The notes below the pieces were generated by a model that was given only the letters and a program-made list of their open reading frames with translations, did not search any database and was not told where the DNA came from. Made by a program: the position numbers and the translations under genes. A DNA stretch of 63,754 nucleotides, the filler included, from Blastocystis sp. subtype 4 (lineage: Eukaryota), in the NCBI RefSeq assembly GCF_000743755.1. It is 3 parts of 3 records of this genome, joined end to end, with 100 filler letters (N's around TTAATTAATTAA, not from the genome) between each part and the next. Parts side by side here need not be neighbours in the genome. Positions count along the whole stretch, not along the records: positions 44,146 to 63,754 come from NW_014569340.1; 2 more parts are not named here. One strand, 5' to 3'. This document shows, piece by piece, positions 4,639 through 54,900 of the stretch; position 1 is the first letter of the stretch, and each line of letters begins with the position of its first letter.

Positions 4639-4677
4639 TAACTGTATCATGTACCATTCTTGTTAAACAAACAATAC

Positions 4678-5670: not shown

Positions 5671-5722
5671 GGTAAAGAACTAAGTACAACAAACAAGAAC
5701 TATACTATACATCACTGAAATG

Positions 5723-6306
5723 TTATTCTTCCAGAGCCCACTTGTTTTCCTCACGAATCTATATTCAACAATACCTCAAAACCCAACCTTCGCCTCCTCT
5801 TCAGAAGTGAAGTCATTGACAATTCCGAATGCAGCACGAATCTCTTCAGGACTCTTTCCCTTGATAATACTTGCAACCTTGGCACAACTACAGGTCAAAC
5901 CCAAGTCCCAACAATACGTCAAATCCAGAAGCGGCTGAATAATCAAGAAATTGGCAACAACAATCAGATCCAACAACTCTTCTGTAGTAATGTTCACGAA
6001 ATTGGCATCCCATTCGGATACGACATCACGCATATTGCTACTTTTCAGCGGTCTATCGATTTCAGTAAAGGGTTTGTCCAAATGATATGTACCTACAGAA
6101 ATCACTTCAACAAAACAAAACTCACAAAACTCAACAACTCTATTAAGAGAAGTCTCTTTCACGTTCTCCAAAGTGACTGTATTATTCGAGATACTTCCCT
6201 TCTCTTTCAGTCCTTTCAGATACTCAGACATTTCAAGAACCTTTGGTTCAATGATATGTCTGCCTCCTTCCATACTAATAAGTACATATTTGTCTCCGTT
6301 CTCCAT
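5723..6306 (-). CDS. SKP1: SKP1-family SCF adaptor (spliced)
   Basis: VSEWDANFV, LIVVANFLIIQPLLDLT, AKVASIIKGKSPEEIRAAFGIVNDFTSEEEAK|IREENKWALEE*. Minus-strand TGTTTGTT at 5695-5688. Confidence 0.93.
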
Positions 6307-6590
6307 ATTCTTGGCTCCAAAATGACACTTTTTCCTAATTGTCCCTATTAATAACTGACCCAATTCTTTCTTTTGTTCTTTTATCTATAGATCTTGAATA
6401 GAATGGTTGTTTACTGATCTGTAGGATGGAAAAAGTGAAGGATAGTGATATGTCGATGGATTACAGAGAACAGTAGAAGGTAATGAATGGGAGATAAGTG
6501 TAAGGAGATTCTATGAATATTGACTATGAACATTTGGAACAACACACATTCTCCATAAACAACCATGAAAGATACAATACAAACATCAAC

Positions 6591-8186: not shown

Positions 8187-8337
8187 TGTATCTGCTTCTG
8201 GAAACCAATCAATGAAGAGAATCAAATTGGCGGTGACACACATTTCTGGCGGGAAACCTGAACAAAGAGCTATTTGGAGTGCAACGACATTCTTATTCAA
8301 TTTGAATCTCAAAAACAAACAAAACAGAACAACTAAA

Positions 8338-10759
8338 TCAACCAGTCTTTTGTTCAAACCATTCTGGAACCAATTCTGGAATCCAACTGGACTCAATAGC
8401 AGTAACTCCTCGAAAGTAGTCTTTGGTTGTATATACCAATTCCTATTCATAAAGGAAAACAACGAAAGAAGCATATCAGGATATAGTATACACAATCGCT
8501 TCAGGATATGGTTTCTTCTGAAAGAGGACCGAAGCAGGATGAATAGAAGCTGTTTTGTTGCCTATCATTGTTTTATATTCAGCTCGACTGTTCTTCACGA
8601 CTTCTGTCACCTTCTTTGCGAGTTGGACAAACATCCCTGCAGTTAAGCATTTTCGAACTTGGTCCAGCTCTCCTTCACAACTCTATATTCACAATTCCAT
8701 ATCAAGACAACAATTTCCACAAGACCCAGCTTCTCACAATATCCAACCAACTGTTTGCGAATCTCTGTAGCTGTTTTCATCGATCTTGGATTGATGAAAT
8801 TATCATAGCACCACTGAATGTTTCCATTCACTTCTCTAGTCTTCACTTTCTTCTCTATTCTCTACCGATATGCATGATACACATTCAAGAAGGTTAGATG
8901 ATCACCATAAACAGATGCAAAACGCTTGTGAGAAACATTCGCCTTCTCGCGTTCCTCACGAGGTGAGAAGAAGATATTTTCCACAGACAGAATCGACACC
9001 AAATCTAGAATCTATGAATCAATTCTTCTATCAACGAACACCTCAGAAGTACAATGGAAGTCTTTGCTCAGGAGAAGAAGACGAGCATAGATTGGATCAA
9101 GAGGAAGCATTGCCATTTGACGTCCTACTGATGTGAGAGCTCCCTATTCATAAAAGGATGTTGAAGGATCTACTGTCTGTCGATCTAATGCTCCCAACAT
9201 GAGTAATTGCTGAAGAGCTCGCTTCAATGAATCACGAGAAGGAGCTTCCAAATAGTTGAATCCCAAGACATCCTTCACTCCGATAGTCTTCAACTACAAG
9301 GAAACAAATCCCTCCAATCATACCTGAAGAATGATACTCGAGAGATTACATCGCTGAATCTCAGGAACAGAATCTTCTGCCAGTGCTAAGAAAGCCTCTT
9401 CAGGGAATAAGCGATAACACTACAATCAATCAAGCAAGCAAATCAATCGTACTTTCCCTTCACTTTCTCTTCCAGCACGACCTGTTCGTTGCCATGCATG
9501 TGATTTGGAGATTGGCACAACCAGAAGCGATTCTAGTCCTGTAGCTGCTTGACTCACACGGATCTTTACCATTCCCGTATCAACCACATATTTGATTCCT
9601 TGAATGGTGACGGATGATTCAGCGATGTTTGTAGAGAGAATCACTTTACGACAACGAGGAGGTGCTGGTGCAAATACAGCCAATTGCTGATCAGGAGGCA
9701 GAGCAGCATAAAGCGGATAGATCTAGAATCAAAATGGATCTGCAAACATACTAGAAGGGTCCAATCATCCTTTGGCAGCAACTTCACTTTGTCTTGTAAC
9801 AGAAGGGATAACGATTCTATCTCTTCCTGACCTGTGAGAAACACAAGAATATCTCCTGGAGGCATATCCAAATGAAGCTGAAATGAAGGAACACAATGAC
9901 TCCTACCTGTAGAATGGTTATCAAGGCAGCTTCGAGATAATCAGGTTCTGGTGTTGGAGTATAACTATATTCAATCCACTTCTTCATTCCTACTAAACTT
10001 CAACAGGGAATGTTCGACCCTGAATTCGAATAATATGATTGGGATACAATCGACCTGTCTCTCCTGGATAGTAGAATTGATCAAACAGATTGGATTGAAG
10101 TGTAGCACTCATCACAATCAGTCGAATGTCTCTCTTCTCCTGAATCCATTTCACAAATGAACACAGAATATCAGTTTGGAGAGATCGTTCATGAGCTTCA
10201 TCAATAATAATCACACTGTATCTACTCTCAATCCAACAAAGAACTAATACTCAGACAATTCATTATCCAACATGGCTTCACGTAGAAGCATTCCATCAGT
10301 GATGAATTTGATATAGGTTTGAGGACTAGTACAGTCGTCAAAACGAACACTGTAACCAACTTCTCCTCCTAACTGACAACCTCGCTCTTCTGAAACTCGT
10401 TTCGCAACAGTAATAGCTGCTACACGACGAGGTTGGGTGATTCCAATCACTCCTTCACTACATATGAGAGATTCCAGAAGAATCCACCTAAACAATCCAG
10501 ATTCGTGCAGGTATTGGGCAATTTGAGTCGTCTTTCCACTACCTGTTTCTCCAACAATGATCGTTGTTGGATTCTTTTTCACTGAATTGATAATTTGCTG
10601 ACGATACTGATATACAGGAAGACTCTTCCGTTCTTGTTCCAGCTACTTCTCACTGAAGAATCCCAAACTCACATTCTTTTTGGTTCGTTTATTTCGAAAC
10701 ACATTTGCAGACTCATTCTCATCATTGAAGAACACTTCCTTCACTTGTTTCCGACCCAT
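8338..10759 (-). CDS. DEAH-box RNA helicase, DHX33/Dhr2-like (multi-intron)
   Basis: [47 protein letters not shown] and OB-fold [18 protein letters not shown]. Short N-terminus. Confidence 0.9.
8443..8484 (-). other. U12-type (minor spliceosome) intron with AT-AG termini, 42 nt
   Basis: 5' end ATATCCTG, branch-like TTTTCCTTTAT, 3' TAG. Removal yields the conserved AIVYT|ELVYTTK; the retained intron contains stops. Confidence 0.8.
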
Positions 10760-11140
10760 CTCTGATTATATTTCTATATGTCAATATTGATAGTTTCATC
10801 GATATACTATAAAATCGAAATGGTACTGTAGTCGTACAAGTGAGAGGAAACGAGAAAAGTGTTAGAAAAGAAGAACCGCGGTTTGGAAGGATTCTTGGCG
10901 GATATCAAGAACACATTCATTACAAGTTGGATTTGGATCCTTTGGAGTTCGAGGGTTGTAGAAACGTTGTGTAAGTAGATTGAACAAGTGGAAATATCTT
11001 TCTGTGAAAGGATTCTTTGTTTCAAGTTGCTGTTGGATTCCTGTGAGTGAATTTGTGTTGGACTGCATTGAATGAAGTGATTGAATTCTTTTCAGAACTC
11101 AATTGGATGGTTTTGAAGTGATGATTGACCTGTGTTGTAG

Positions 11141-12977
11141 ATGAACGAGGGTGATAGTTCAAAAGATAAGAAACAGTNNNNNNNNNNNNNNNNNNNNNNN
11201 NNNNNNNNNNNCTGTGGTCCCTGAAGACTTATCTGTGTGTAGTGAAGATTTTTATGAAATGGATATCCCAGAAGAACCATCCTCTCAGAAGATAGTACCC
11301 ACTGAGATTCCCAGTTATGTTGATTTGTTTCTTTGATCCATAGAAGTGCAAGTTCCAGTACTAAAAGGTCAATATGATGTGACTGATAATCAATTCACTT
11401 GGGTTGGAGTCGTAGGGACTGAGATAAATATGAAATGCAGTGGGGAATGGGAAGTGGTGATTCTATCTTCGGGACGACAAGTGAATTCCGTTATTCTGCT
11501 CCTATTCCTCCTGAAAGTGATAAGAGTCAGCCCTATTCTGGCTACTATAATGGATACTTTGGATTCAAAGCAGAGATTCCGAAACGTGTTTATGAGCGTA
11601 ATGTGAAGTTGGAATTCACAGCACTGGAAGGACGATATCAAGTGATTGGAGTTGGAACTAACGAATTTGGTTCCTTCACACTTCTAGGTACCTATAATCC
11701 AGAAACCAAGGAATTGAATTGTACAAAGGAGTAGGAGATAGAGAGAGGAATCATAGGAAGATATGACCCAGTCGCATCTCCTTCAAAGAAACGCGTGAAG
11801 AAGGCTCCTTCAGTCAAATCCAAATCAGTTAAGAAGTCTGAAACTGTCAAACCTCAAGTAAAGAAGGAATCTGTAAAGGAATCGGATCTTCAACAGTGTC
11901 ATACCATTTTGGCTCATCTCATGGTACATGTATGAGAGAGAAATGATGGATAGGAGCATGAGAATGCAGCTCCATTTCTTCGTCCTGTAGATCCTGTTGA
12001 ACTGAAGATTCCTGACTATTTCGATGTTATCAAACACCCGATGGATCTGGGAACCATTCACCAGAAGCTTGAAACAGGAGAGATTCAATCAAAGAGCAAA
12101 TTCATTGAACTGGTTCGACTCGTATTCGATAATGCTCTGTTGTACAATAAGCCCTATGATCCAGTGTAGGTGAGAGGAGAGAGTGGAAATGTAGTGCAAC
12201 TATGGCAATGACGTTGAGTGAGTATTTTGAGAGGGAATTGGCAGGAGGGATAGTCACAGAAGTATCACATAAACAGAAGAAAGATATTCAATCAAGTCAT
12301 GAACGAAGTGGAGTGAAACGTCCTCGACAGTATGTATGTATGAGTCGCGAAGTATATGCCATGATGCAGGATGTATTGCAACAGAAACCACTTCATCATG
12401 AAGTTTTGAATCCAGTGTTGCAAGAGTATCTAAACACACAATGGAAGCTGCGAAAACGATCTGCCGATATGCTGGAGGAAAGAGAGAAGCGAGTATGTGG
12501 TTGTGTACAGACTGTAATGATGATATCTCTCTTTCATTCCTAGTACTTTGAAGACGTACATCTCACTCTTGCAGAACTTGTGTTTATCTCCTCCCAATTG
12601 ATGAAATTGAAGACAAATCATCGACGTACCTTACTGATGACTGTGCTTTCGATATCTGAAAAGGAGTTCGATAGGTCTCATGGAGATCAGATAGATCTGA
12701 GAGATCTGACTGTCCAACAACAGCGTCTATTGCTTCTGGAATTACAAAGGATCCAAGAAGAAGAGTTCCGAGAACGTAGAAGTGAAGAAGTGGATGAAGT
12801 GTAGGACTGGAAAGGAGAGAAGTGGCGAGGAGGAAAGAGATTGCTGAGAAGCATATCCATTCCGAAAGGTCAATCATTAAGGAGATGTTAGAATCGTCAA
12901 GTGATGAAGAGAGTAAGCTATGGGAATCGAATATGACAATAGAGAAATCAAAGGGAAAGAAGGCAACTGTAATCTAA
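11141..12977 (+). CDS. BET/GTE-like bromodomain protein with ET-like domain and N-terminal Gly-rich beta domain (spliced; start uncertain)
   Basis: AAPFLRPVDPVELKIPDYFDVIKHPMDLGTIHQKL..VRLVFDNALLYN; ET-like QIDLRDLTVQQQRLL. TAA at 12975-12977, TGTTTGTT at 12986. Confidence 0.8.
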
Positions 12978-13132
12978 CGTGTCTGTGTTTGTTGGAAATG
13001 AGATAATGAACAGACGATAGCTAGAAACCAGATTGTGCATAATCAGGTAGTGTCTTGAGTGAAAGACATGTCACACCATTATTCATATTACCTTAGTTTT
13101 GATACTTTTGCATTCTCTCTATTTGTTCTTCT

Positions 13133-15177
13133 ATGTCTGATGAAGAAATAATTGAGTTTTCGAAGGACCAACGACTTCCAGAAGAAGGAGAACCCATATG
13201 TGTAGTAGGAGTTACAGGTAGTTGTTCAGGATAGGTGTGTGGGAAATATGGCGCTTATGTCTGTGATAAAACAGATGAGGATGTTTGTAGTATTGAATGT
13301 AAAAATATCCTCCTTCAAAGAGTAGAAAACACAGAAGAGAATCAATTACCTCCAGTGTCATGCGATGGTTGTTGATATGTGTTGTAATAATTGGAAGATG
13401 AGACGTTTTATCATTGGAGGATTTCTGCTTATTACAAGTACATGACATGGAGTACCTTGTACACAAATAAGGATGTTTTACTTTTTGTATTCTCTGATGT
13501 AGATTGTTGAGATTCGACGGGGTTTGAATATTTCTGTGAACGGTGACTTCTATCATTCATGTAGTCTTCGTGGTTAACTATGATGTAGTGATTTCATTTG
13601 ATGATATCCAATTAATGCCTCAGTTACGTGAGAACCTAATTGAAATGGGAGTGATTTCACCTACTCCCATTCAGATGGAATCAGTAAGAGTGATGGGATG
13701 AATTACATGAAGATTCCTTGCATTCTAAGTAATCGAGATGTGATCTTACGTAGTAATACTGGAAGTGGTAAAACGTTGGCCTATCTTATTCCACTTCTTT
13801 TACTTCTTATTGATTATGTTCACTTGTTTTGAAGGAATAATTGGTAGTATGAGACGTATTCTGTATATACTGATTTTGTTATCTTGATTGTTGTTCCTAG
13901 TCGTGAGCTGGCCATACAAATTGAAGAAGTGGTGAAGTTTATGGTTCTCAAACTACGAGGAGTTCGAACTGCTCTCATTATTGGAGGAGAGAGTCGAGAA
14001 CAGCAAGTAAGAGTATTCATTCTCTGAGACTTAGATGTATCGACTTCGACAGGATGTGAATGTTCTTATCTGCACTCCAGGTCGTTTGTCTGATATTGCT
14101 TCGCATGACCCTCATGGAGGTACTGGTAATAATGTTATTTCATGTAGCTGGAGAGATATTAAAACGAGTGCGTTCTGTAGTACTCGATGAAGCGGATCAG
14201 CTGATGAAGTCGGATTTTCAAGATCAAGTGTTATCATTGTTTTCTCATCTAATATCTCGTTGTCTACAAGTGACCTTTGTAACATGAAGTTGTTGTGTAG
14301 AAGATCGTAGTGTCAGCAACTATTACTGCGAATCTCCGTGCCCAGATTCTCCCTCATCTCCAGAATCCAATGGAAGTGACTGTTTGTGATATTCGTATTG
14401 GATACAGAAGAATCTGAGTTGAAGAACGATTGAATTCTACTCTCCAGTACTCTATTCAGTGGTGTGAAGAAAATCAGAAGAAGAAGAAGTTCGTAGCATT
14501 GATGAAGAAGTGTATTCAAGACACTGAGTCACTGCTTCAACTTCCTCTTGTCATTCTTTGTCAGACACGGTTAGAATAGACTCATAGTTTGATGCTTAGA
14601 ATGGAAGTAGTCGATGTTCAGGCCATTCTTGCTTCATCTTTCCCTACTGTTTCTCATAATGCAGTCACTGTTGAAACACCGTTTGTTCAACGTCGTGAGA
14701 TTATCCAACAATTCCAAACGAACCAACTGGAAGTCCTTGTGTCCACACCAGGTATTGTGGGGCGAGGTATAGAGTTGCGGTCTGCAAATAGTGTTGGTAT
14801 AATCTTTTGGTTTAATGTAGATCTTGCTTTGGTCATTTGCTTCCTCTGTCTCGGAATTCATTCATAATGTTGGTCGAATTGGAAGAGAAGGTAACACTGG
14901 ATCGGTTTGTGTATTCTGCAATGCACACAATAAGAAGATCTTTCAAGGATTTGTCAAGTTGGCTGAAGAGAATCACATCAAGATACCTTCTCGTCCTCTT
15001 TCCTCTTTCTCATAATTTGTAGAAATCAAGGAGTGCATTCGAGAAACAGGTAGGAATGAACTTGGTTTGTAACAGGGAGAACTCCGAAGCACAAAGTTAA
15101 CAACCAAAGAATTGAAGAATTTAGGGTTATTTACTGAACAGGCAATGGAGAATTGGAAACGTTTTCGTTCTCAATAG
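13133..15177 (+). CDS. DDX59: DEAD-box helicase DDX59 with N-terminal zf-HIT (spliced)
   Basis: [73 protein letters not shown]. Confidence 0.9.
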
Positions 15178-15234
15178 AAAGCATAGTGATAAGAATAGGG
15201 GACCCCAATTCTTGTAGTAATTATTGGTTTAAGA

Positions 15235-16071
15235 ATGTTTCGCTTGAAATCTGTTTGTGTATCTCGAAATGTTAATGCTTTCTACCGTTCTTTTGCTTCA
15301 AGAAACAATGTTCTGTTTGTCCTTGGAGCTCCTGGTTCTGGAAAGGGAAAGCACTCAGATCATTTAGTTGCCAAGTTTGGTGGTTGTCACGTTTCGGTTG
15401 GTGAGATCTTACGTGAAGTTGCGGTTTCGGATGGTTATCTCATTATCAGACAGTGAAAACTCCGGGAAAGTATACCGAAATGATTCAAAAGCATATGAAT
15501 GTAAGAAATACACGAATGAGTCATCGATTAGGAAGGTACTCTCGTTCCGACGGAGGTGACAATGGAACTGATCAGAGACAAGGTAATGAACTCCACTAAT
15601 GGAGTTCTTCTCCTTGATGGTTATCCACGAAATATGTCCAACTATAAAGTATTTGAATAATGTCTGAAATAAATATTAGACATGGTGTGATGTGATGGGT
15701 GATAGTTGCAACGTGCTTGGTTGCTTACTCTACAAATGTAGCTATGAATTTTTGGAAAAGCGTTTGATTGCTAGAGGAAAGGATTCGTAGCACAATAATT
15801 AATAAATCAACTGTAGAGGACGTGCTGATGACAATCTAGAGGTTATCAAAAGACGATTCTATAGTTATGAACATGAAACGAAAGAAGTCCTTGACAAGTT
15901 GAGAGAGAAGGTTGGTGATTTGCGTTGCTTCTAATGTAGTACTCTATTGAGGAAATTTGTACGGAACCGCCCTTTGAAGAAGCGTTCGAATGAATAACTA
16001 AGATAATTCCTAGATTTCCAAACTCTGTAAAAGCCTACTGCAAGATTATAAAACAAAACGGGTTAATGTAG
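15235..16071 (+). CDS. Adenylate/UMP-CMP kinase family, probable organelle presequence (spliced)
   Basis: VLGAPGSGKG P-loop, LLDGYPRN, GRADDN. Arg/Ser-rich N-terminus. TAG at 16069 with TATTTGTT at 16074. Confidence 0.88.
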
Positions 16072-16295
16072 TTTATTTGTTCGAAAATACATCAACCATC
16101 CGATACACCCATATATGCTAGTGGGAAAAGAATAATTAGAGCAAGATTCTCTCGTTCATCGAGTCCTTTACTGGATTGGCTGAACAGTTACCATAATTTG
16201 GTGCATCCAATAGTATAGGAACTTAACCCCTTCAGAGAAAACAGAATCTTCTCCTGTCTCCTATTTCAATTAGAATAAAACAAGTGAATTAAAAG

Positions 16296-16787
16296 ATGTC
16301 TATTTTTAACTATGCAGGTAACAAGTTCTTTGACAACGAGGACTACGCCTTCAATGCTGTTCCTACATCAAGAGTTGCTTTGTAAGATCATGTCACTCGA
16401 ATTACGGTTAGCGAATCTAGCAATATGAACTTCTACCAGCTTCCTCTCGATCTTATTGAGGTTACATCTCTTTACTGTTATGAGAAATAGACTCCTGATA
16501 TGTATGTTCTGATTGCTGAAATTCCTGGAGTTTCAAAGGATAGAATAACAATCACTACTAAGGATGATAAACTCATGATTGAAGGAAAGAAGAAGAAGAA
16601 GGTGATTAGCAATGAAGACCATTATCTAATCCATGAGAGAAGAAATGGACTGTTCAAGAAGATGATTCAGTTGCCTATTGATGCTGATTCGCAGAGTATG
16701 TCTGCTCGAATTGAGGATGGTCTCCTTGTATTATCAATTCCTCGCGTTAAAAACGTGAATGGAGCCAAGTATATCACAATTAACTAA
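16296..16787 (+). CDS. Small heat-shock protein (HSP20), two introns
   Basis: LPLDLIE|TPDMYVLIAEIPGVSK..HERRNGLFKKMIQLP..ARIEDGLLVLSIP..ITI. Confidence 0.88.
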
Positions 16788-16834: not shown

Positions 16835-19800
16835 TTATTGAACCACATCTCCTTTAATATAGTACATCATACGCTGAGTCAACAACTTTGATTTCATTCT
16901 TCCATAAGTACAGATACAAAGAACAATAAGGATAATGATCAGGCAAACAATACTACACCCGATCACAATAATGAGGAGAATTGGTATACAGCTGCCTCGT
17001 TGATGACTCCATTCACCCTCAGAAACACCAATCTGACAGGTACGAGAAATAGTACCCACAAACTTCCCTTTACTGGAACAAGGGATAGTAACAGTGACTC
17101 CAACATGAGTCTCAGGAAAGATACCATCTGCAGTACACATTCCAATATGTGTACTGAAACTAAGGGAGCAAGAACATACTCCGTTTTCATTGCTACCGTA
17201 GATAACCACATTTTGGTCCTTCATAACCTTTGTTGGAGTTCCACTAATGTATCCAGTTTGGGAATTTAGCTTCAATCCTTCAGGAAGGGATGAATGTTCA
17301 TCAGTTGAAAACTTAGTGATAAGGTTGTCGTAAGAAGGAGCGAGCGAGATGGGTACACCAAGAACAAGTGAATAAACATCTTGAGAATACAGTAGATTCG
17401 TTGGAGGAGCTAGAATGCAATCACTTGAATCAATATCGGAGAAAAAGCCATCAATACATACTCGTTTCATTGTACCTATCTGATTAGTAGGACATGGAGC
17501 TATTGAAATGCCACCACTTGGCACCGAATCAAATGGACCTAAAGCAGGACACAGTAGAGTTGTAGTACGATGGTATGTCAGATAAATCTCACTAACAGCA
17601 AGTATCTTCCCTGCTTCTACAATATCTAGATCCAGGGCATTAACAACGGTTGAAGCAGGATAGGAATGAGCTTGTAGAGATAACGAATGCGATTTTGTGA
17701 AAGATTCCAGCGACCAATAACCCTCATCCATCCTATTTGGCTGGTTTGAATACTGATAAAATCTCCACCTTGCAGTAATGTTCATTCGATTATGAACAAA
17801 CTCGATATGCGAGAAGCGACCTCCCACACGATTCTCTAGTTCCCAATGAAGGGTCAACTGACGATGTGATAAACGATAAACACAGGCAGTAGCCAGATCC
17901 TTATCAATGAGACCAGAAGAATGGAATCCACATCCATTTGTCGTAGTTACAGGCGAGATCGAAGTGTATATGGAAACAAAGGAGTTTGTACAAAGAGCAA
18001 TAGGAGCAATACCAAATGAAGCAACAGCAGAGAAATGAATGGGAAAGGAATGAAACCATATTGGATAGACCAACTGAATAGCAAGAACATTAAGTCCTTG
18101 AATAGCAGAAGAAAAGAGTAATACAACATGAAATAAAGACTGAGAGTGGAGATTACCAAGAGCAATGAATGTTCCATCTGATTCCTCTGTGGCATGGAAC
18201 ATAGCAACACGATGGCCATTCACCCAAGCAATGAGTCCAGCATGGAAGGTTACAGCAACATTCAATGTTAAAAACGTCGTTAATGAAGGAATAGAGAAAG
18301 AGTGGCGCATATACACAGAAGTGGAATCCATATATCCAAGAGATAATGAGGACTGAAAGTGAACAATAGACCAATTACTGTCATCAAAAGAAGGTACTTG
18401 CCAGCCAGAAGGAGCTTCAGAAACTACTTTCCATTCGAGATCAGGATCTTTGGTTGTAAAGGCAAGAAGGTTTGTAAAGACAATTTGAGCTTGGGATGAA
18501 ACTACTGAACTCATTCCAAGAAGAATATCTTCATTCCCATGTAATACCTTGATTCCTGGAGGAATCGAGGACTCAAGGAGTGGGGATTTCGCGGTATGAC
18601 ATGATAATCGATAGATCCTGATAGGAAGATAGAGATCATAAGATAGAGATACATTATCCATTGAGACTGAGAATGAATGAGTATTTGATACCCAGTCAAA
18701 TGGATAAGATGAGTCAATGGATACTTCGTCAAGAGAGCAATTAAAACTAGTAGGGAAAAATGGAGTGTAAAAATCGATACGAACATGATTCTGTGGATCA
18801 GAACGAATGATGTTCCTTTCTTGTTTTCGGATATGTGATGTTGAATGAGGAGGTATTCCTACATACACATATTCCATTGATGCTGAAGCCAAGTGGAAAT
18901 CATATCGAATCTGAAGGAGTTGTTTCTCCTCAGTGATGTCATAAACTAGAAGAAATGAGCCATCATTCCATGATGGCAATACACTACTCACTGTGATTCG
19001 ATACTTTCCTGGTTTCGCACAAAGTCTCCACTCACATTCCTCGATTTCCTTCTGTTCTTCATCAATTCCTTCTCCAAGAACCTGTATCCATGAATTAGCT
19101 TCCGATCGCTCCATCACCCAACTCTCTAATTGGGGTAACTTTCGATAATGTCGTATCACATGCAGAATATGAGATTCGCAAAGACCAATATCCAATGAGA
19201 ACTTTCCCTGAATTGACTGCTGTTGTGTTGAGAGCACGAAGACTTCATGAACAGAACTCTCAGCAACTCCCACGATTCGACATCTAAACGAATCCAACCA
19301 TAGTCCCTTAGGAAGTGATGGTTGAATAGTGCAATTCGTCACAGGTTCCAAAGGAGTTATGTCAAATGATGTAACCCCAACATAACCGGAATAGATCTCT
19401 GTAGAGAATGTTAGAGAAGATGTAGGAGGATATGAACAAATCAACAGTTCCATAGAAGACAAATGGATAGGATAACTACGTGTTTTGATCGATTTCATAA
19501 TGAGGACATTGGTGAACAGATCACTAAAAGGGAAGAAGAAGGTCATCCTTCCATTTTCGATAAAAGGATGAGATGGCAACAAGCGAGTCTCACTTATTCT
19601 CGATGTGGTGATATTTCGACTAGTAAACACCTCAAAATAGTCAATGGAATGGATTGGATCTGATAAACTGAAACGGACCCCTTCAAAATGCATTGTAATA
19701 TCTGAAAATGAGAGAACAAGAGAACAGTAAGAATATGGAATGATAATGGAGGACTTGATTGGAACAGAGAGACGTTGATCACCACATGTCAAGGCGATGG

Positions 19801-20711
19801 AATAGTCATATGGAACACTATAACAAGAGTCACCTGAAGAAGGAATGGATAAAGAGAGACTGAGTGCCAGATAGTTACTAACAGTCTGTTTATTGGACTG
19901 ACATAAGATGATAGCTAGTATGTTCGTTTGCAAAGTGAATACTTGAGTACTCATCAAAAGAACATGATGATGATGTTCACGATAACAACCTGTAGCATTT
20001 CTATCAAAAGAGTCAACATTATCTTGAAAGACGAGAAACCCATTTCCATAGATTTCAATTCCACAAGAATAATCAATCGATAATTCCAATGCATTTGCAT
20101 TATTGATAGAGATAGTAAAAGGAATACGGATTGCTTGAATTGGATAACTAAAGTCAACAGTACTCAAAGACGTTTGGGTCCATTTAGAGTCATCAAATAG
20201 TGGGAGAACCGCATGATAATCGGGTCTCTCATTAAAGATCCGTACTAGAGAAGAAGGAGAAACAACAACGTTTACTACACAATAAAGAAAAAATATAAGA
20301 GGAACATGAAAATGTCACATTTTGTTCAAAAGGTTGAGTCATCTGACCTCGGTAAACAATGTTGTTCCAATAACCATAAAGAATGAGTTCCGATGTAGAA
20401 CTCCAAATATACTTTCTAGAAATAAGTATCTTATTGTATACTAACCGATCCAACATACTTAGTACATAAACATTCTGCATATTTTCCTTGAGACAGTACG
20501 AATAAAACTGAGTCTCATTGTCAATGAAAGGTTCACTAGACACTTCCAATTTGCCATTGTTATAGATCTTGAACTTTTCGTTCAAAGAAGAGGCTCCACT
20601 ACGCTTTTCAATCCCAACGAACACTGTATTATTCTCACAACTCTGAATCAACGCCGAAGGGAAACGGCAAAGCGCCAATATGAAGAGTAGTTGAACTACA
20701 ACTTCTTTCAT
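16835..20711 (-). CDS. Divergent member of the large surface-protein family (signal peptide, He_PIG, Cys-rich modules, TM)
   Basis: Signal-like MKEVVVQLLFILALC; LPKGLWLD, FDDSNW..YMRHSF..WVNG, LPEGLKLNSQTGYISGTP, CTADGIFPETHVG..GEW; C-terminal TM. 5' exons approximate. Confidence 0.8.
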
Positions 20712-36405: not shown

Positions 36406-37969
36406 ATGAATATTGATGCGTATGGATTGAAATTGACTTAATAAGAAGAGAATTTACCAAAGCGGAGCAACTGGTATTCAATGAGTACTGTGATGTCAAA
36501 GCTCTGCAAGACCGTAATGCATCGGTTCAGTTAATGAAGTACTATTTGAATGAACTAAATTTGGATATTAATCAGCTCCAATTTGTTCATGTGACAGGAT
36601 CAAAAGGAAAAGGAACTTGCTGTACCTATGTGGAGTCAGCACTGCGTAAACATGGCTTGAAGACGGGTTTCTTCTCATCTCCTCATCTGCAGAATCTTTG
36701 TGAGCGATTTCGGATCAATGGAAAGTGTATTTCGAAAGAGACATATCTCAAACACTTTAACGTTGTTTGGTCAACGTTACAGAAGGTAAAACAGAATAAG
36801 GTAGGAAGAAATAAAGACTCATCAACAGAATCGTCCTGCATATATTGCCAATTGGCCGGGTTTCTTCCGGTTTCTGACTCTTATTGCTTTCCGCTTGTTC
36901 CTTGAAGAAAAGGTGGATGTGGTTGTGTTGGAGGTTGGAATGGGAGGGAGAATGGATTGTACCAATGTCATTGAGACTGCTATCACTACTGGAATCACGC
37001 TAATTGATCTAGAACATACAGAAATCTTGGGTCATACGTTGTCGGCAATTGCAAAGGAAAAAGGAGGAATTTTCAAGAAGGGAGTTCCTGCAGTTGTTTT
37101 AGACCAGGACAAAGATGCGATTGATGCATTAAAAGAATGTGCGAAAGAGACAGGTAGGGATTGGAAGGAAGAGTCAACAGTAGAATGTCGAATTCAAATC
37201 GTGAAATCATCTGATCTTCCCGATATTGTGAAAGACACAGATGGTACATATTTGTTGGATAACTTCACTGTTGCATTCTATCTCACTCGAAATGTGTGTG
37301 ATTATTTTGGAATTGTATTTCGAGAGGATTGGATGAAGGAAGTAAAGAAGACAACATCGATGGCTGCTCGATGTCAACATGTGAAGAAGGGATCATTAAA
37401 CTGTTTGATTGATGGAGCTCATACTCCAAAGAGCATGCAAGCAGCTTATAAATGGTTCAACCAGCAATTGATAGATGTGAAGGAAAAGAAAGTGTTGTTA
37501 TTTTATTGTGGAAGGGACAAAAATTGTGATGCATTGTTATCATCGCTGGTTCAACTTCCTGTTGATGAGATTGTCTTTACCATGGTAAAGCATCCTAAAC
37601 CAGAATACACGTAAGGATAAACGTGGGTTGTAAATTGTAGACATGTGAAATTACCAACCATTGAAGAATTGCTAACTACTCGTCAGTTGGAAGAAAAGGA
37701 TGTACCAGATCTTCAACCAGAGGGAATTCAAGATGAATGGTTAGTTTATTTAGCGAAAATTTGGAGAATTGAGGAGACATACCACCATCTTCAGCATCGG
37801 TAGGACAAGGAATAGTTGTTGAATTATAGGATGATTCGATTTGTGAAAGATGCAGATCACTTGGTAGAGGAAGCGTGTCATTCAAAGCAGAATACAACTG
37901 TATGTTGCACAGGATCACTGTATCTTTGTGGTGATCTCTTAAATGCTATTGAATGGAAAGAAGAGAATT
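36406..37969 (+). CDS. FPGS: Folylpolyglutamate synthase (spliced; stop predicted to be created by polyadenylation)
   Basis: VHVTGSKGKGTCC, FFSSPHL..ERFRING, LEVGMGGRMDCTN, IAKEKGGIFK, IDGAHT, CTGSLYLCG. Confidence 0.93.
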
Positions 37970-42578: not shown

Positions 42579-44045
42579 CTACACCTTCACAACTCTGGTC
42601 TTTTTGATTGTTGATTTGACAACCTTCTTGCCTTTAACTCCTCCAACAGCATGCTTCTTCTTACTAACACGAATCAGAATCAGAACTACAACCAGAATAA
42701 TCACAATTGCAACTATCACGAGAATCACAATCGTTGCAATAGACATACAGAAACCAGAAGCCTTCTGCCACTCTCCATCTTCTGTTCCTAAAATACATGT
42801 ACGTGTCTGTGTACCCACATAGTTTCCCTGTGTGGAACACTCGTGTACAGCCACTTCACCAACATCCGTAAGTGGGAAGAATCCCTCAGACAGACAACGA
42901 CCTTTACGGATAGAGATGGTCACCTCCACGGCAACTGCTTCTGCCTGATTCTCAGCATATATCACATACTGAACCATCTCTGTAATAACCGTAGGAACTC
43001 CTGAAATTTCTCCTGTCTTCTCATTTAGAGTCAAACCAGCAGGTAAGTGGATTCCCTCATCAATATACCAGTGTTCAACAATATTCTCAAATACTGGAAT
43101 TCCTGAAGACACCTGTGTATCCATCACAAATGTCATATGCGAGTTACGATAACGAACTCCTGTTGGAGCCTTCTGAGAACAGTGATCCAATTGAACCTCA
43201 CCAAATACGCCATCTTCACACAGGCGATACGAATAGCCACGATATCCTTCAGGACACACTGAAGAAGAAATCTGACCTTCACCTACTGAAGGATAAGTGC
43301 CTTCAGCAGGACATACAGCACCTGACGCTTTGCAGTATGCAGTAAACATGGCTCCAAGACTCGTTGTAGCTGAGCCTTGATCTGTAATCTCCCAGCGGAA
43401 TGTACGGAAACCAGCCAATGCTACTGGAACAGAGATCAGAGACTTTGTTCGAGAAGTTACCGTAACATTTCCATCAGAGAACATTGTGATTGGGTCGCTT
43501 CCTTCGCTCAGCCAACCATTTATATCGAAGCCCCAAGAAGTGACCGTGCTGCTTCCTACTAAATTGAATGTATTCCACTTGCTTCCTTCCAGATTCTCAA
43601 CAGTCCAGCTCACGAACGTACCAATGGTCGAAGGAAGAGTAGCCACTGTGTAGGGATCCAGGTCCATGATGTTGGCTAGCACTCCCAATGTGGGTGTAGA
43701 GGACTCGAGAGAGGAGAATGAGTCAACAACAGTAGAACAGTCATCAACTCCAAATACTCCAGTAGCATCAAACACAACAGCATCAGATGAAGTACCGCCA
43801 ACAGGACGATGAATCTCGAAACTGAATACATTAGTACCCTCCTGAATTCCAGCTGTTGATAGAATCACATGGAACTTCGAGAACACACTAGGATCATGAA
43901 CAGCCAGAGATTCTGTGTTTGAATCGAAATTCTCAGCCAGATTGAGTCGAGCAACCAGATTTCCATTCAGATAGGCAGCCACTCCTCCAGAATACTTCAC
44001 TCGAACATTCAACACTTGGTAATCATTCACTCCACTCATTGTGAA
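42579..44045 (-). CDS. Large surface-protein family paralog, 5' truncated by gap
   Basis: Colinear homology to the C-terminal half of 5..2821, with He_PIG, Cys-rich modules, TM and Lys tail (VGGVKGKK). Confidence 0.88.
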   Translation of the reverse strand, partial: FTMSGVNDYQVLNVRVKYSGGVAAYLNGNLVARLNLAENFDSNTESLAVHDPSVFSKFHVILSTAGIQEGTNVFSFEIHRPVGGTSSDAVVFDATGVFGVDDCSTVVDSFSSLESSTPTLGVLANIMDLDPYTVATLPSTIGTFVSWTVENLEGSKWNTFNLVGSSTVTSWGFDINGWLSEGSDPITMFSDGNVTVTSRTKSLISVPVALAGFRTFRWEITDQGSATTSLGAMFTAYCKASGAVCPAEGTYPSVGEGQISSSVCPEGYRGYSYRLCEDGVFGEVQLDHCSQKAPTGVRYRNSHMTFVMDTQVSSGIPVFENIVEHWYIDEGIHLPAGLTLNEKTGEISGVPTVITEMVQYVIYAENQAEAVAVEVTISIRKGRCLSEGFFPLTDVGEVAVHECSTQGNYVGTQTRTCILGTEDGEWQKASGFCMSIATIVILVIVAIVIILVVVLILIRVSKKKHAVGGVKGKKVVKSTIKKTRVVKV

Positions 44046-44650: not shown

Positions 44651-45841
44651 ATGTACCGAACACCTAAGAAGAGAAACAAGTTAAAAACACTAATCGCATC
44701 AGTCGTGTTCTTCATCTTATGCTTTGTGAATGATCACTCCGTTTTTGAACTATAGTATATTGGATATCAGGAGAGATATACGAATTGTGTTGAGCCATCG
44801 CTACACATTCTGGATTCTTATGGTGACTATGTCTGTTGATAGTTACTCATTAGATGGTTATTCACTAACAGATCGAAATACTCTAGGGAAAGAGAAATAT
44901 CTATTGTGGAGTTCTCCTAATATCCTCTGGAATGCTGCTATCACACGGAAGAAGTATCAGTTGGTGCTTACAACAACGATTGGTGATAGTAAAGTTGGTA
45001 CTGTTGTTATCTGTGAAGGGATAGACTATTGGACCAGATGTTCTAAATGTTCTCCAAATGTTTTCTGGATATCAACAGCAATACTCGTTCAGGGTCGTTA
45101 TTTATTCTAGATCTCCTGCTGTTCTTTCATTTTGCCGTGATCACAACATTACTGTTATCACATCTTATTTGTAGTACTTAGAGGATTCTTTTAGTAGTAG
45201 GGTTAATAGTTATGGAGTTCCATTTGTCCGTTACTTTTTAGTTCAAACCAAACTTCTCATTGCAGGTCATTATTATGGTTACATTAACAGTGATATTTTG
45301 GTGTCTTCGAAACTCTTTGATCTCCTTATACAATGCGATAATTTGATTCGTCAACAGGTATTACCCTCGAAGGTAGCAATTGGAAGTCGTGTATTTGAAA
45401 TACCTCTAGAACTTGTTCCTTCTACTCTGTTGAACACATCATACGTTACCGTTGACATGGTGAATAAGGTGGTTGAGTTGATTGTTCAAAATCCGAAAGC
45501 TGTCCTTCGGCATCAGCATAGTTCTGTGTGTCACTTCCATTGCCTTTAATTCTTAGGATTATTTCATCTATTCGGAGTCTGTTGATCTTACAAAGATTAC
45601 AGATATTGTGATTGGAAGAATGCGAGTGGACAATGGTTTGCTACAGTATGTGCGATATCAACATGGATCACTTGTGGATGCAACTAACTTTGTTCCTGCA
45701 GCTCATTTGGGAGTTTGTGGGTTTCGTTGTAAGATGACTTCTTCCAAGATACCCTATTTGGATAAGTATTGGAACATATTCTACACACAGTATTTCGTTT
45801 GGTTTCGAGGAACTCTACGCCACCCCGATTATCGGTTTTAG
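44651..45841 (+). CDS. Type II membrane putative glycosyltransferase-like protein (spliced)
   Basis: Basic N-terminus plus signal anchor (TLIASVVFFILCF); NSYGVP, YGYINSDIL (DxD-like), DYFIY, IGRMRVDN, LVDAT..H. Confidence 0.55.
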
Positions 45842-45871: not shown

Positions 45872-46348
45872 ATGAGAAAGGAGAATGAAGTGTGTTGTAT
45901 CTGCTTTCAAACGATAACAAGAACGAATGTGTTTGTTACATGATGATCTTCATTAACAGAAATCGGTTCTCCTTCCATGTTTCCATAGCTATTGCTATCA
46001 TTGTATTGTCCATTGGTTGAAGGTTCGATCTGTTTGTCCCATCTGTCAAGATTTGTAGGAATTTGATATTGCTAATTTACAAGATGCTGGATGTTATTGT
46101 TTTCAATTAGAAGTAATGACGACTATAAGATCATCACCATTCGTCCTGACCCCTTGTACTTGGGTCTAGCAATGTGTTTAAATTCACACGTAGAGTGTTC
46201 CTCGTGTTATGAGAAAGAAACTGTTTCGTTGGAATATCATCCTCATCTCTTTCTCAATGAAAGAGGTGAATATGAGTGTTCTATCCTCGAAACAAATCGG
46301 ATTCGAGCGTTATTGGGCCTAAGACCTTTAGAAATCGATGATGAATAA
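45872..46348 (+). CDS. TOPORS-like C3HC4 RING finger protein with C-terminal HIND (Hub1-interaction) motif; two introns
   Basis: CCICF..|..LPCFHSYCYHCIVHWLKVRSVCPICQDL|CWMLLFSIRSNDDYK and SILETNRIRALLGLRPL. Introns 45929-45959 and 46055-46083 keep frame. Confidence 0.8.
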
Positions 46349-46424
46349 CTTGATATTCATTCTCTGTTTCCTATCCAACCAATAATCAAACAAACATGAT
46401 CTAAAATATATTGGAACGAATCAT

Positions 46425-48797: not shown

Positions 48798-51700
48798 ATG
48801 TTGGGAGCGATACAGAGAAGAGGAATTAATGGACGATTATGCAATAGGGTGTATGCGCTAACGCGCCAATTCTCAATCCTTGAAAACAAGCTGGCTTTCA
48901 TCGATACCCTTGGAGAGGAAGTGGATAGAAATGGTTTGCTTCTTCCTCCTGTGGGATCACTTGTGAGTTATTCTACTCAGCGTCAATATCGAGTTGGTGT
49001 CTATTGTGGAAAGAAGAATATCGATGGGTTACAGAAACTACAAATTCGGAACGAACATGACTGTATTCATGATGTATTTGCGTTTGTCTCCTTTTATGTA
49101 GATTGGTATTGGTTCTCTTAATAGTTTGCTTTCTCTCCCACTGGCTCTTCCGTCTTCGTTTTCTGCTGCTGACATTGAGTCGATCGAAAACGATATTAAT
49201 ACATTGTACAGATCATCAAAGTTACCAATGGAACGTATTTATAACAAGTTTTGTGGATATGCCCGGTTCAATGTCCAACAAGTTCTCCCGTATGTTCCAG
49301 CAAAGTGGAAATCACAGTATTCTGATATTGTTCTAATTGGTGTCGTTGATAGAGTGCCTCTTAGGTTTTTGGTTGATGACTAGTTCCTCCGGAACAACTG
49401 TCAGTATGTAGAAAAGATGAAAAATGATTGGACGAAGTACAACGAGTATCGATGTCAGCCAAAGCAATTCTTAAGTTTGCTAAAATCGAACTATGCTCTT
49501 GCAATGGAAGTTAACTCGATATTTCAGAATCGATATGGTATTGATTCAAAGGAGTGTGATTCTTTTGTTAACGATTTTCGTGCTGTTGTTAATGGATGAC
49601 TGACTGATTTGTAGTTGAACAAAGAGAATCCAGAAGAAATCCAACAGTTTATATCTTCTCATCGTCGCCTTGTGAACGCATTGATCATCCTTGCAAATGT
49701 ATTTTCTCCTTCTGAAGAAAATGTAACGGATTTTGCTCTAATTCGAGATCATGTGCTTCTCCCATTGTATGGCCAAAAGGAGGATTCTTCTTCTCATTAT
49801 ACTCTTCAATCACGGGAAATGGTTCAATTCAAAGTAATGTTTATAATTATTGAATCATAATTAGTGTGGTGATGTGTTGCGCGAATTGAAACTTCTCAAA
49901 CCATATTATCCACCACAGTTCCTTATTGATAGTAAATGTGGCTATACAGATTTCACACCGTCATGTCTCACTTCAGCAAAGCGGATTCTTGATACATTCT
50001 TTTATAAGGAGGTGGGGAAAGAAGATGAAGCATGGGATCTGATCGATGATTATGCTGATAGTCGAAGCGAGTTCTCACAATTAGCTGTTGCTATAGACAG
50101 CATCTCTGTGATTACAAATTGTTCTTCTCATGAAATAGACATCAGAAGTTGATGACAGTATCTCTGTGATCAATGATCATACAGTTGCTGTTCATATAGC
50201 TGATCCAACATCATTCATTCCACTCAATTCTGAACTTGATTATAATGCTTCTTTGCGTTCAGTTACGTATTACTATCCTAATCGAGGTATTGCTGTGTCT
50301 CTCTCTTCAGTATAGTATATCCACTATATCCATGGGACATTGCTACTGCTTGTTCTCTGAGTACAACTCAATTTGCTGATGTTCGTCCTGATAGTCGGTA
50401 TTCTCATCAGTCACTTCAATCGTCGGAGGGAGCTCCTACGACTCCTCGTCCTCGTGCTCTGACACTAATTATCTCCTTTCAAGAAGATGGTTCTATCAAT
50501 GATTTCTCTGTTCGATGTACAACTCTTCAAAGACCTATTCGACTCACATATGAAGAAGTTGAACAACTATTGAAGATCAAAGAGAACCATCCTTCTCGTT
50601 CGTTCCACTGTTCCTCCTCTCCATCGTTTGATCTTCCATTTCAACCTCTTCTCAATCCTCAGCGTTCAGCAGAGAGTGTAATAACTCGACAGACCTCTCC
50701 TTCAAATGCAACACTCATCGGGTTTCAACAACCTTCCACTCCTTTTATCGATTCCAATTCTGTGATTCATCGAGTCTCTTCATGTTGTTCCCAGGAAGAT
50801 CTACTTCATACTCTTCACTCTCTCCAGCGTCTGGCTCACATCCGAAGACGATATCGTGAACAACGAGGGTGTATCGATTTCTCCTTTTCTGAAGCTCGAT
50901 TCCATATCGTAGAGTCTTCCGTTGAAGGAACTATTGAGAGTAATTCGTGTAGCATGGAAGTATTTCTCCTTCATTCGAGTAATTGCTAGTCTGAACAGCT
51001 TGTAATGGAGATGATGGTTGCTGCAGGAGAAGTAATCGGGCTCTTGGGTAAAGACAATGTATGTTCAGGTATCTACTGTTATCATAGAATATCCCGTTCC
51101 CATATCGTTCTCATCCATACAATGTTCTTCTTCCAGCAGATCAGATGAGTCAACGACATATCCACAATTTATCCTATTTTTGATACCTTCACTTCACTAT
51201 TTAGTGCACCAATCACGTATCCTCTGCTGATGCATAGCTGGGAACAACTCATTCGTTGCCTGCCATCAAGAATCACGACTACTGCGGAACCTCATAGTGG
51301 TTTGGGAATTGAAGCCTATGTCCAAGTGACATCGCCTCTACGTCGTTACAACGATTGTCTTGTTCACCGCCAGTTGAAAGCATTTGCTCATCATCAACCA
51401 CTTCCTTATAATGAAGAGGTTATGCAGATGGTTGGAACAAGATGTTTCTCATTGGAGAAAGCCTCTACCAAATTCGAAGATAGCTGGAATCGATACATCA
51501 TTCTGCAGAAAATGAAAGAGGTATTGAAAGAACGGGGAAAGTTGGAACTGTATGGAACTGTCCTCGATGTTACGTTGAGAGGGTATTTGTGAATTGATGG
51601 ATGAATGGTAGAATGAACTCGGTGATCTGTGGGATTGTTCTGAATGATCTGGGTATCCGGTTTAATGTGTCTTCTGCATCTATCCCACAGAAAGGAGAGA

Positions 51701-51923: not shown

Positions 51924-54900
51924 ATGTCCTCTACAGATACTATAATGAATATTGTTCTCGTATCCTGTGAGTTTGGTGTGTCTCATTGGTAGTCAGAGAG
52001 TGACTATGCAACTGTAAAAGATATGTCCCCGCCAATTATTGAATACAATTTCAGGTTTGGCTGGGTGTTAGGGTTGTGATTGTGTAGTTGGGACGATACT
52101 GGGATGAAACTGGCAGATCTTTGGACAGCATTTGAGATTGCTTTCTGTGAAAAGAAAGCAGCTGTAGGATTGTTGGTTGGATACTTGAACAACTAGATGT
52201 GTCAAGATGAACTATATTTATTTATCGATCTATTCGTCGAGGTCTATCAGTACTGGAAACCAACAGAATGTGCTGAGGATACGTTCTACAATACAGAAAC
52301 AAGAAATGTTATTGGAGAGTACAAGCATTGCATTGCAAACGAGGCTCTACAATCTTTAGGTCATCCATTCCGCTTCATTCGTGGTCTAATCACAGTAATC
52401 GTTATTAGTAATAATAAATAATAGTGGCTGAAATGTATGATGAGTGAGAATAAGGAAATTCGAGATGTTCATAAGATTGAGAATACTCTAGAGATTTTGA
52501 CGCGATCTCCCCATAATCGGTTTTTCCTCATGTTTGGATTTATAAATAGTGTTCTTCTTCGATATAATCATTTTGAAGAGATTCTTCTCAAATGGTTGGG
52601 AGAGTGTTCAAAGACCATTACTGCTATTGCTACAGGTGAGGCCATAAGTCTCGAGGATGCTTATCTTTCTCTCTGTAACATCATGCATATCATATATAAC
52701 TTCATGCCTACACTGGAGACTTGTTCTTGGTTCACATTGAAAGGGGCTTTCTCTGAACAAGCCTCGAACTTGCTTTCCAATATTAATCATATTTTTGGCT
52801 CCTTAGTTTGGTATGTATGGAATGGGAGTTTCATTCATAGTATGTCATTGGCTGGTCATGAAGAATGTGTGATTGATTACAGTTGGGAAATGACAGTAAT
52901 TACATGCAAGCTGAAGGAACTCATTGCTAATCATAGTATGCCAAAGAAATGGGTTGTGTTGCTCCATCAATATATCCTGATTACTGCCAACAACATTCCG
53001 TTTCTTCAGTCTTCTACACGTGCTGATCGTGTGCTTCGTTTGTTAACTCAAACTTGTGAGGGTGCTGGACAATGGCTCTTTGGAAAGATGCCTGCAACTG
53101 CTTTAGAAGAAGAAGAACTTATGACGCTAAACGTGGATATGATGATATTGTTGCTGAATGTTTGCAATGGAAGTGATGCTATTCGTATTGAAGCATATCA
53201 TTGTGGTTGTTATGTGCTTGTCAATACTATATCCTTGATTATGAGGAATGATAGATTTCTTAATCACACGTCTTAGTGTATCTGATGCGGATAGCTTTGC
53301 AGCACGGAGAAGTGTCTATTGTTGGATCCACTACGAATTCATTGATCACTATCGAAGTACCCCGTTCCTATCAGATGCTTGAAGATGGTGTAGCCAAACT
53401 GACACCAGAACTCTTCCGTCAAAAGTCGACAGTTACTACTCCTCATTGGAATCTATCAGAGGAAGCTCATAAGTTGCATCTTGAGGGTATAGCCGAGAGT
53501 TCATTGGATGTATTGACTCGATTCATGATTCGGAATATAATCTCCTGGGATGTATCATCTTCATTCTGTCTTCATTTGTAGGGACCAATTCGTGTGGTCA
53601 ATAAGGAATTCTTTGAGCAGTTCCTTCAAACATTCCAGAACATTGAAGTGTTTGATCCGTCAGCAAGGTTTGTCCTTCATTTGTCTTTCATTCAAAGACT
53701 TGTTGCTCAGTTCATTCTCTTGGAAGTACTTCGTACAATCTGTCGTGAAGAACCATCGTTATATCGCTTCTGTATGGATAAACATTTGATTAGTACTCTT
53801 CTCTCTGCCAAGTTCTTGATCCCACTCGATAGTACTCATTTCACTTGTAGTACTGATGATTCTATGGAGAGATGTGTGAATGAAAAAGCAAGTGACTTAG
53901 ATCGGGTTTGTATCTTTGGTAATAATTGAACATTGAAATGAAAGTTAGTCCGTGAAGCAATCCTTGATTTGATCTTTGATCTGTTACGTCATTCAGAAGA
54001 GAGTACTTATTTGTATGAGCTTTCAACGCTTCTTCAAGCAATGGCAGCTGATTCATTTGATGAGCTCTTCATTATAAGCGTTGTTCTTCATTCATTCTCT
54101 CATATTTAGGTGTGTAACCGTCTTCAAACCCTCGTAGTGAATCATCCTGATACTATCAAAGCGGTGTCTCTTCCTCAATACCTTCTTTATCTTCTTTTTG
54201 CTCGAAACCGGGATTCTCCTCTCAACTGGCCATCAAAATATGCTATGCTTCAGCTCCTCGATATGATCTTCAATTCATCTCAAGTCGCTATAAATTATAT
54301 CGTTGCTTCAGATCTCAGACTCAATGGATCAGTTCTGAATACTGTTGAATATTACTTCAGTCTTGTGGATAGTTCACATACTCACGCTCTGGGAATTGCT
54401 CTCATTCTTCTTCTTGTCCGAACAGCTACGTCGACACCATCACTTGCATCAGCTTTCGGTCAGATCATGAACATTTTCATAAAGTATATGTTAGCTTGAC
54501 TAATCACTTCTAGTCTGGGAACCTCTCTTTCACGTGTCCATCAATCGGTGTTCACTGAAATGAGTACCAGACTTACTCACAGTCTCTTCAATATTATTGA
54601 CTATATCTTACTGGAAACATGCCATTCAGAACCTGAAGTGACACGTTCTCGTCAAAATATGTTGTGTAAGACAAATATATCCTATTTTGGTATATCCAAA
54701 AGAAGTTCCTTTATTTGCACTTTGTAATTCATTGTTTCTCTATTGTGGCTACCACAGAACCCAAGTACGTCTGTGTTGATGACTTCAATGTAGTGAATAT
54801 TCCTTCTCGGTTGTTCGTCACATGCTGTTCACAGTGTATCTGATGCTTCACAACAACCCTGAGTACTATGAAGAGTTCCGTCACACAGTTCAGGATGATC

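Follow-up and report, generated by a model that had tools for sequence, protein, structure and literature searches.

The window, by which we mean the whole stretch of Blastocystis sp. subtype 4 (ST4) DNA analysed here (63,754 nt in three joined parts, to which all coordinates refer), contains a gene for a 128-aa protein in which a flexible linker connects a RING finger to a C-terminal HIND. This protein is a candidate Hub1-targeted ubiquitin ligase, a reading to which we assign a probability of roughly 0.5. HINDs have been placed solely on Snu66 and Prp38 and regarded as specific to the spliceosomal recruitment of Hub1 (PMC4141198, PMC7615767), and published work states that clear HINDs were not found outside these two proteins. 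Because a RING is here joined to a motif reported only in two splicing proteins, the product would likely be a Hub1-binding ubiquitin ligase. Judged from its sequence, the combination of RING and HIND is genuine and conserved, and it appears not to have been described. A full-text literature search, with most subscription papers outside its reach, contained no description of a RING-HIND protein, which agrees with the original prediction that a HIND on a RING ligase had not been described before; nor did the literature searched contain a ligase acting on Hub1. A HIND on a RING, kept across Blastocystis and distant proteins, would make a third class of HIND carrier. If the reading is true, the protein would provide Hub1 with its first dedicated connection to an E2, and the sole non-conjugated ubiquitin-like splicing factor would be coupled to ubiquitination.

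Structure and transcript of the gene

The gene lies in the part of the window that comes from NW_014569340.1 (44,146–63,754). The GC content of the window is 39.5% (published values for ST4, 39.4–39.6%; PMC12129017, PMC5608401). The 128-aa product was read from a 1,498-nt spliced contig of run X6, which is presumed to be RNA, and the gene has the following parts:

45872..45928, + strand: exon 1, with the start codon (placed from the frame and the orthologs) and the first two zinc ligands of the RING, C8 and C11
45929..45959, + strand: intron 1, 31 nt, GT-AG, spliced out in X6; position common to the ST3-like and ST1-like loci
45960..46054, + strand: exon 2, the remaining C3HC4 RING (C26, H28, C31, C34, W38, C45, P46, C48), with Q49 at the linchpin position
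46055..46083, + strand: intron 2, 29 nt, GT-AG, spliced out in X6; position conserved
46084..46163, + strand: exon 3, ICP0/TOPORS-type post-RING segment, a predicted beta-hairpin (profile alignment to 1CHC; ortholog model)
46164..46193, + strand: intron 3, 30 nt, in frame, spliced out in X6; missing from the annotated ST3 proteins P0005 and P0018
46194..46237, + strand: start of exon 4, variable linker (2/15 positions invariant; ortholog model pLDDT 53–54)
46238..46276, + strand: conserved extension before the HIND, likely a short hairpin (9/13 positions invariant in three lineages)
46277..46333, + strand: HIND core (PF19252; alignment to SART1 117–138), with Arg115 at 46304–46306 equivalent to human Snu66 R127
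46346..46372, + strand: stop codon (46346–46348), poly(A) site near 46360, and a 6/8 match (46365–46372) to the Blastocystis downstream motif, as taken from PMC5608401

The original prediction had located a RING and a HIND segment in one spliced product, and both were found where it had placed them and are borne by the single spliced X6 contig, which has a 25-nt poly(A) loose end behind 46360. Its two introns and product of about 138 aa need revision: a third, in-frame intron of 30 nt (46164–46193) is also removed in this contig, and with three introns rather than two the product is 128 aa. The RNA-type evidence consists of this one contig from one study, and contigs may fuse overlapping transcripts; runs X19, X20, X23 and X24 are without coverage of the gene. 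The DNA-type runs X5 and X7 retain the three intron stretches wherever these are covered. The annotated ST3 proteins KAK8798200.1 and KAK8826633.1 support this gene structure independently: they have the RING and the tail in one chain and lack the third intron.

The X6 contig (44646–46360) covers not only the RING-HIND gene but also the gene upstream (stop codon at 45839–45841), with 30 nt between the two. It may be a two-gene transcript, or overlapping ends may have been joined in assembly. The upstream gene had no match in Pfam or PDB. A read-through fusion with this gene, considered because only 30 nt separate the in-frame stop from the start codon and the contig spans both genes, was rejected; the ST1-like loci have three in-frame stops there, and the ST3-like loci are without that neighbour.

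The RING finger

Exon 2 matched the Pfam families zf-C3HC4 (30.3 bits; cut-off, 21) and zf-RING_2 (31.8 bits), and thus bears out the C3HC4 RING that had been predicted. All eight zinc ligands (C8, C11, C26, H28, C31, C34, C45 and C48) are kept, together with Trp38 and Pro46. The post-RING segment was held to resemble that of TOPORS, and this view gained support. The best solved match of the family profile was a herpesvirus RING, 1CHC (E-value = 5.6e-11), with an alignment running through the post-RING segment, and clusters of the TOPORS, RL2 and PHRF1 families are among the structure neighbours of the ST3 ortholog in the Atlas. The motif comprising the RING and the post-RING segment is common to 75 of 152 sequences. 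Trees on 76–78 columns, with rows lacking TOPORS labels, had no resolved branching; the window protein is too short for the other TOPORS regions.

An initial model from 9 rows reached a mean pLDDT of 45 and was set aside. The model of the ST3 ortholog (73 rows; mean pLDDT 83.9, pTM 0.55) has a RING, a post-RING hairpin (strands 51–58 and 61–66), a linker of low confidence and a tail helix. Fold searches took in the RING portion, with the tail not searched separately, and gave Z scores of up to 7.8 for the modelled ST3 RING, which overlays E2-binding E3 RINGs at 0.7–1.8 Å over about 45 residues; the E-values are weak (1e-3 to 1e-2).

By convention we take as the linchpin the residue that follows the last zinc ligand; it is Gln49 in the window protein, Ser in ST3, Met in the ST1-like loci and Leu in P0047. 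A basic linchpin (Arg or Lys) is absent from the window protein and present in five of the eight longer RING+HIND proteins. According to PMC12326332, a linchpin Arg promotes ubiquitin transfer, yet the identity of the residue differs among active E3s, and XIAP is a ligase with Tyr at this position.

The HIND tail

The core of the tail, CSILETNRIRALLGLRPLE, is encoded at 46277–46333. When the exon frames of the gene were scanned with the Pfam HIND family (PF19252; cut-off, 25 bits), the 87-aa open frame scored 26.5 bits (E-value = 4e-6), so that the HIND of the original prediction was recovered by profile; the last 24 aa scored 29.4 bits. The window has 407 stop-free frames, and of the 150 longest no other matches HIND at E ≤ 1e-4. 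Among solved structures, the sole match of the HIND was human SART1 117–138 (E-value = 0.7).

Eight residues in contact between Hub1 and HIND are named in PMC4141198. Six of the eight human Hub1-contact residues are identical in the tail, including the salt-bridge Arg, and the other two are replaced, Cys for Leu and Ile for Leu. The Arg that had been singled out as contacting Hub1 is Arg115 (46304–46306), the equivalent of human Snu66 R127. A helix is predicted at 106–115 in the ST3 ortholog model, with a pLDDT of about 85. Neither a SART-1 nor a Prp38 domain was matched by Pfam in the window exons or the full-length orthologs.

Orthologs in Blastocystis

A metagenome scan yielded 13 loci, nine of which are of the Blastocystis type and four of which are chance matches. 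The Blastocystis-type loci form ST4-like, ST3-like and ST1-like groups, the subtype labels being inferred from GC content and similarity. The same three intron positions fit seven of the nine, and the other two (L001 and L006) are without a gene model because their contigs start within the gene. The four chance matches (L010–L013) were dropped since the match is confined to a short pre-HIND stretch in GC-rich, intron-free frames. L014 was a chance phage match, and P0003, a Tim17/HIND chimera on a 732-bp contig, was also dropped. P0006–P0008 and P0019–P0046 are unspliced, partly misframed calls, of which the tails alone were used.

Synteny extends downstream in all three groups, to a Tim17-like gene and an ankyrin gene; upstream, the neighbouring gene is conserved in the ST1-like loci, not in the ST3-like loci. 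The best named relative of the window protein is from Blastocystis sp. NMH. KAK8802158.1 (Blastocystis sp. Blastoise, 283 aa) is a longer ortholog that also has the motif at its end. All named members of the family are annotated as hypothetical proteins.

Positions invariant in the three Blastocystis lineages number 20/42 in the RING, 12/28 in the post-RING segment, 2/15 in the linker, 9/13 in the extension and 11/19 in the HIND; by this count the tail is the best-conserved part among the orthologs. The Pfam HIND scores of the orthologs are 22.4–24.3 bits in the ST1-like group, 14.2 bits in P0004 and 9.9–12 bits in ST3 (cut-off, 25), and the full-length ST3 proteins had no Pfam HIND match. In the ST3 tail the Arg is still present, and each of the six hydrophobic contact positions is occupied by an aliphatic residue; the changes in the ST3 HIND are mostly at the Gly turn.

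In the ST1-like ortholog (L007 4640–4665 and L008 10125–10150) a genomic stop codon is absent nearby. A TGTTTGTT-like motif 5 nt past a T in these loci suggests a stop codon made by polyadenylation.

RING and HIND beyond Blastocystis

When 1.84 billion representatives were searched with a profile, 1,196 matched at E ≤ 0.001. Among the best 150 of the 1,196, at least seven longer proteins (201–376 aa; P0051, P0056, P0057, P0058, P0060, P0063 and P0078) pair the same ICP0/TOPORS-type RING with one or two C-terminal HINDs, and two of them, P0051 and P0057, have two HINDs in tandem. Their RINGs are about 40–50% identical to that of the window protein and Gly, Ala, Arg and Pro are strongly enriched in five of the seven, from which we infer that they come from other eukaryotes. 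Two pass the Pfam HIND cut-off (P0051, 25.6 bits; P0057, 37.1 bits) and two others reach 22.7 and 24.8 bits, whereas none of P0050, P0060, P0063 and P0078 matched the Pfam HIND at E ≤ 0.001. A profile built solely from the three HINDs of the Snu66 protein P0071 scored at least 15 bits in 23 of the 152 sequences, including all seven and P0071, and below 0 in the other 129, a separation that is partly circular because P0071 was itself picked up by the family profile. The Arg is kept in all 21 HIND copies tabulated outside P0071. On these sequences the RING+HIND architecture is no Blastocystis speciality.

An N-terminal helix is common to five long HIND-bearing proteins, and its profile also finds (at 10 bits or more) five HIND-less relatives, P0059, P0065, P0086, P0102 and P0120; the short ST1, ST3 and ST4 forms are without it. 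Those of P0059, P0065, P0068, P0069, P0086, P0102 and P0120 that were Pfam-scanned had RING matches alone at E ≤ 0.001. The named RING relatives are from Diphylleia rotans, Spongospora subterranea and two Galdieria species; 11 related RINGs, including those of Diphylleia, Spongospora and Galdieria, had no HIND in the sequence analysed, though some of these sequences are perhaps cut at an intron. For the 12 HIND-bearing RINGs and the 11 related ones together, one common origin was neither rejected nor demonstrated (p-AU 0.40). A strict Pfam scan of the 95 other RING matches found no extra domain, and an alignment search for named members gained unrelated RINGs alone. PF19252 was not found in the Atlas clusters (of at least 50 members) listed for P0018 or P0056, and the viral contigs contained neither a RING-HIND relative nor a HIND pattern.

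P0071 is a Snu66/SART-1 protein with three tandem HINDs, before each of which stands the extension of the RING proteins; Snu66 proteins described in the literature searched carry one or two HINDs each. P0124 (cluster P0209–P0213) has 90 aa, with two extended HINDs and nothing else (Pfam, 43.4 bits), and may be a stand-alone Hub1 binder or a single exon of a longer gene.

Hub1, Snu66 and introns

InterPro counts for eight Blastocystis proteomes, Proteromonas and Cafeteria are given in Table S5 of PMC12129017. In that table, the number of HINDs equals the number of SNU66/SART1 matches in nine of the ten proteomes. Snu66, Prp38 and MFAP1 are annotated in all eight Blastocystis proteomes, and Prp38 and MFAP1 in all ten. 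Hub1 is annotated there in one of the eight (ST3-NMH; not in ST4-BT1) and in Cafeteria, and is unannotated in Proteromonas although two HINDs are annotated there. As the ST3 RING protein has no Pfam HIND match, the HIND counted in ST3 is another protein's, likely that of Snu66; the single HIND counted in ST4-BT1 is ambiguous. Since Snu66, Prp38 and MFAP1 are present throughout and HIND counts track Snu66 counts, a replacement is not needed, and it does not seem, as far as these annotations go, that the RING-HIND gene is a substitute for the HIND of Snu66. The Hub1 gene is of the 73-aa class, and a gene of this class is easily overlooked in annotation. Scans of viral and prokaryotic contigs for Hub1 motifs were empty.

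The original prediction had tied the architecture to the tiny and non-canonical introns of this genome. This link was not upheld: the architecture also occurs in seven divergent proteins, and 98.3% of ST1 introns are GT-AG (PMC5608401). Elsewhere in the window, two AT-AC introns of the minor-spliceosome type, both starting with ATATCC, are at 53229–53269 (41 nt) and 54677–54720 (44 nt). Both are skipped in X6 and one of them also in X20. A third skip of 40 nt, near 51156–51195, has an ATATCC-like start and ambiguous ends.

A candidate Hub1-targeted ligase and its alternatives

In the proposed mechanism, the protein would bind Hub1/UBL5 through its HIND, and its RING would recruit an E2 charged with ubiquitin, placing it next to Hub1 or next to proteins held on the other face of Hub1. 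We think it quite probable that the HIND docks via Arg115 on the Asp22 face of Hub1, and the RING probably possesses ligase activity. Hub1 binds HINDs via Asp22 and Prp5 via the opposite, His63 face (PMC8431670, PMC8790634), and MFAP1 occupies the Asp22 face in the B complex (PMC10943123). Because the Asp22 face is used by the Snu66 HIND and by MFAP1, the protein would meet Hub1 outside the B-complex exon channel. The target pool would be free Hub1, or Hub1 held via its His63 face by Prp5 or by SIM-bearing proteins. The ligase would thereby set the supply of Hub1 for splice-site choice; splicing is reportedly tuned by the level of Hub1 (PMC8431670).

Several points stand against the ligase reading: the ST3 HIND is far under the cut-off, the linchpin is Gln, and Hub1 is annotated in one of the eight Blastocystis proteomes. 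The depletion of human UBL5 under ER stress, reported to be ubiquitin-independent (PMC10339194), also counts against it. In plants, UBL5 sends a viral protein to the proteasome (PMC7485977). No HIND-bearing ligase is named in the abstracts of these two papers.

The tail resembles the HINDs of Snu66/SART1 and Prp38 (PF19252; human Hub1-HIND complex, 4PYU) in its core motif, the Arg, 6/8 contacts and the predicted helix. The tandem HINDs of P0051 and P0057 are as in yeast Snu66, and the extension before the HIND is as in P0071. Unlike Snu66 and Prp38, however, the HIND carrier here is a RING protein without a SART-1 or Prp38 domain. The RING and the post-RING segment are like those of ICP0/TOPORS-type ligases, although those ligases are long and have SIM clusters, whereas the window protein has 128 aa and a HIND tail, and the short Blastocystis forms differ from them in their non-basic linchpin. 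TOPORS and ICP0, the closest RING relatives of the window protein, have been reported as SUMO-targeted ligases (10.1101/2023.12.20.572718; 10.1101/709485). The likeness to SUMO-targeted ligases (RNF4, TOPORS, ICP0) is one of design alone, namely, a flexible linker between a RING and a short motif that recognises a ubiquitin-like protein; they use a SIM, in place of which the window protein has a HIND. Since Hub1, to our knowledge, does not become conjugated to proteins, targeting would go through non-covalent complexes. By analogy, the simplest reading, to which we give even chances, would be the design of a SUMO-targeted ligase with a HIND as the targeting motif. The yeast ligases Uls1 and Nfi1 are two-hybrid partners of Hub1, but contact it via SIMs on an Asp22-independent surface, not via a HIND (PMC8790634).

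The low conservation of the RING relative to the tail, the lack of a basic linchpin in each of the four short Blastocystis forms and the existence of P0124, which is 90 aa of two extended HINDs alone (though perhaps a single exon), would also suit a decoy or adaptor, the HIND of which binds Hub1 against Snu66 and MFAP1 while the RING is weak, structural or self-ubiquitinating; a HIND and MFAP1 do share one face of Hub1 (PMC8431670, PMC10943123). However, zinc ligands, Trp and Pro are all retained, the linchpin is Arg or Lys in 5/8 longer members, and XIAP is a ligase despite its Tyr linchpin (PMC12326332), so that we consider a decoy unlikely. It is quite unlikely, too, that the protein is a spliceosome-associated RING with an extra Hub1 site, which would deliver Hub1 at the tri-snRNP or B complex or ubiquitinate a spliceosomal protein. 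HINDs shift among tri-snRNP proteins in evolution and function after transplantation (PMC8431670, PMC7615767), and the extension before the HIND is common to the Snu66 protein P0071, but a protein of 128 aa in which Pfam recognises no spliceosome-binding domain does not fit this role well, nor does the annotation of Snu66, Prp38 and MFAP1 in 8/8 Blastocystis proteomes.

The tail may, alternatively, be HIND-derived or HIND-like with another partner, or its binding to Hub1 may have been lost, in which case the protein would be an ICP0/TOPORS-type RING E3 with another target. The low HIND scores of ST3 and P0004, an extension more conserved than the HIND core, the HIND-less relatives and the lack of a Hub1 annotation in 7/8 Blastocystis proteomes (PMC12129017) point in this direction. 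Yet ST3 keeps the Arg and the aliphatic residues at the six hydrophobic contacts, with changes mostly at the Gly turn, the small Hub1 gene is easily overlooked, and the proteome of Proteromonas has two annotated HINDs with Hub1 likewise unannotated; we hold such a tail to be distinctly improbable. Returning to the Hub1-targeted ligase, we suggest, as a tentative extension for which the odds are somewhat short of even, that the proteins may represent an undescribed family of Hub1/UBL5-targeted ligases in several eukaryotic lineages, possibly ancient, of which Blastocystis ST1, ST3 and ST4 would have a minimal RING-linker-HIND form.

Other features of the window

Three long, intron-poor frames (2–2818, 16838–20314 and 42582–44045) have putative Ig (He_PIG) domains, and three HSP20 frames lie within 3191–16784. 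A weak match to the Mur ligase C-terminal domain (26.6 bits, below the cut-off of 28.4) is at 36805–37611 on the + strand.
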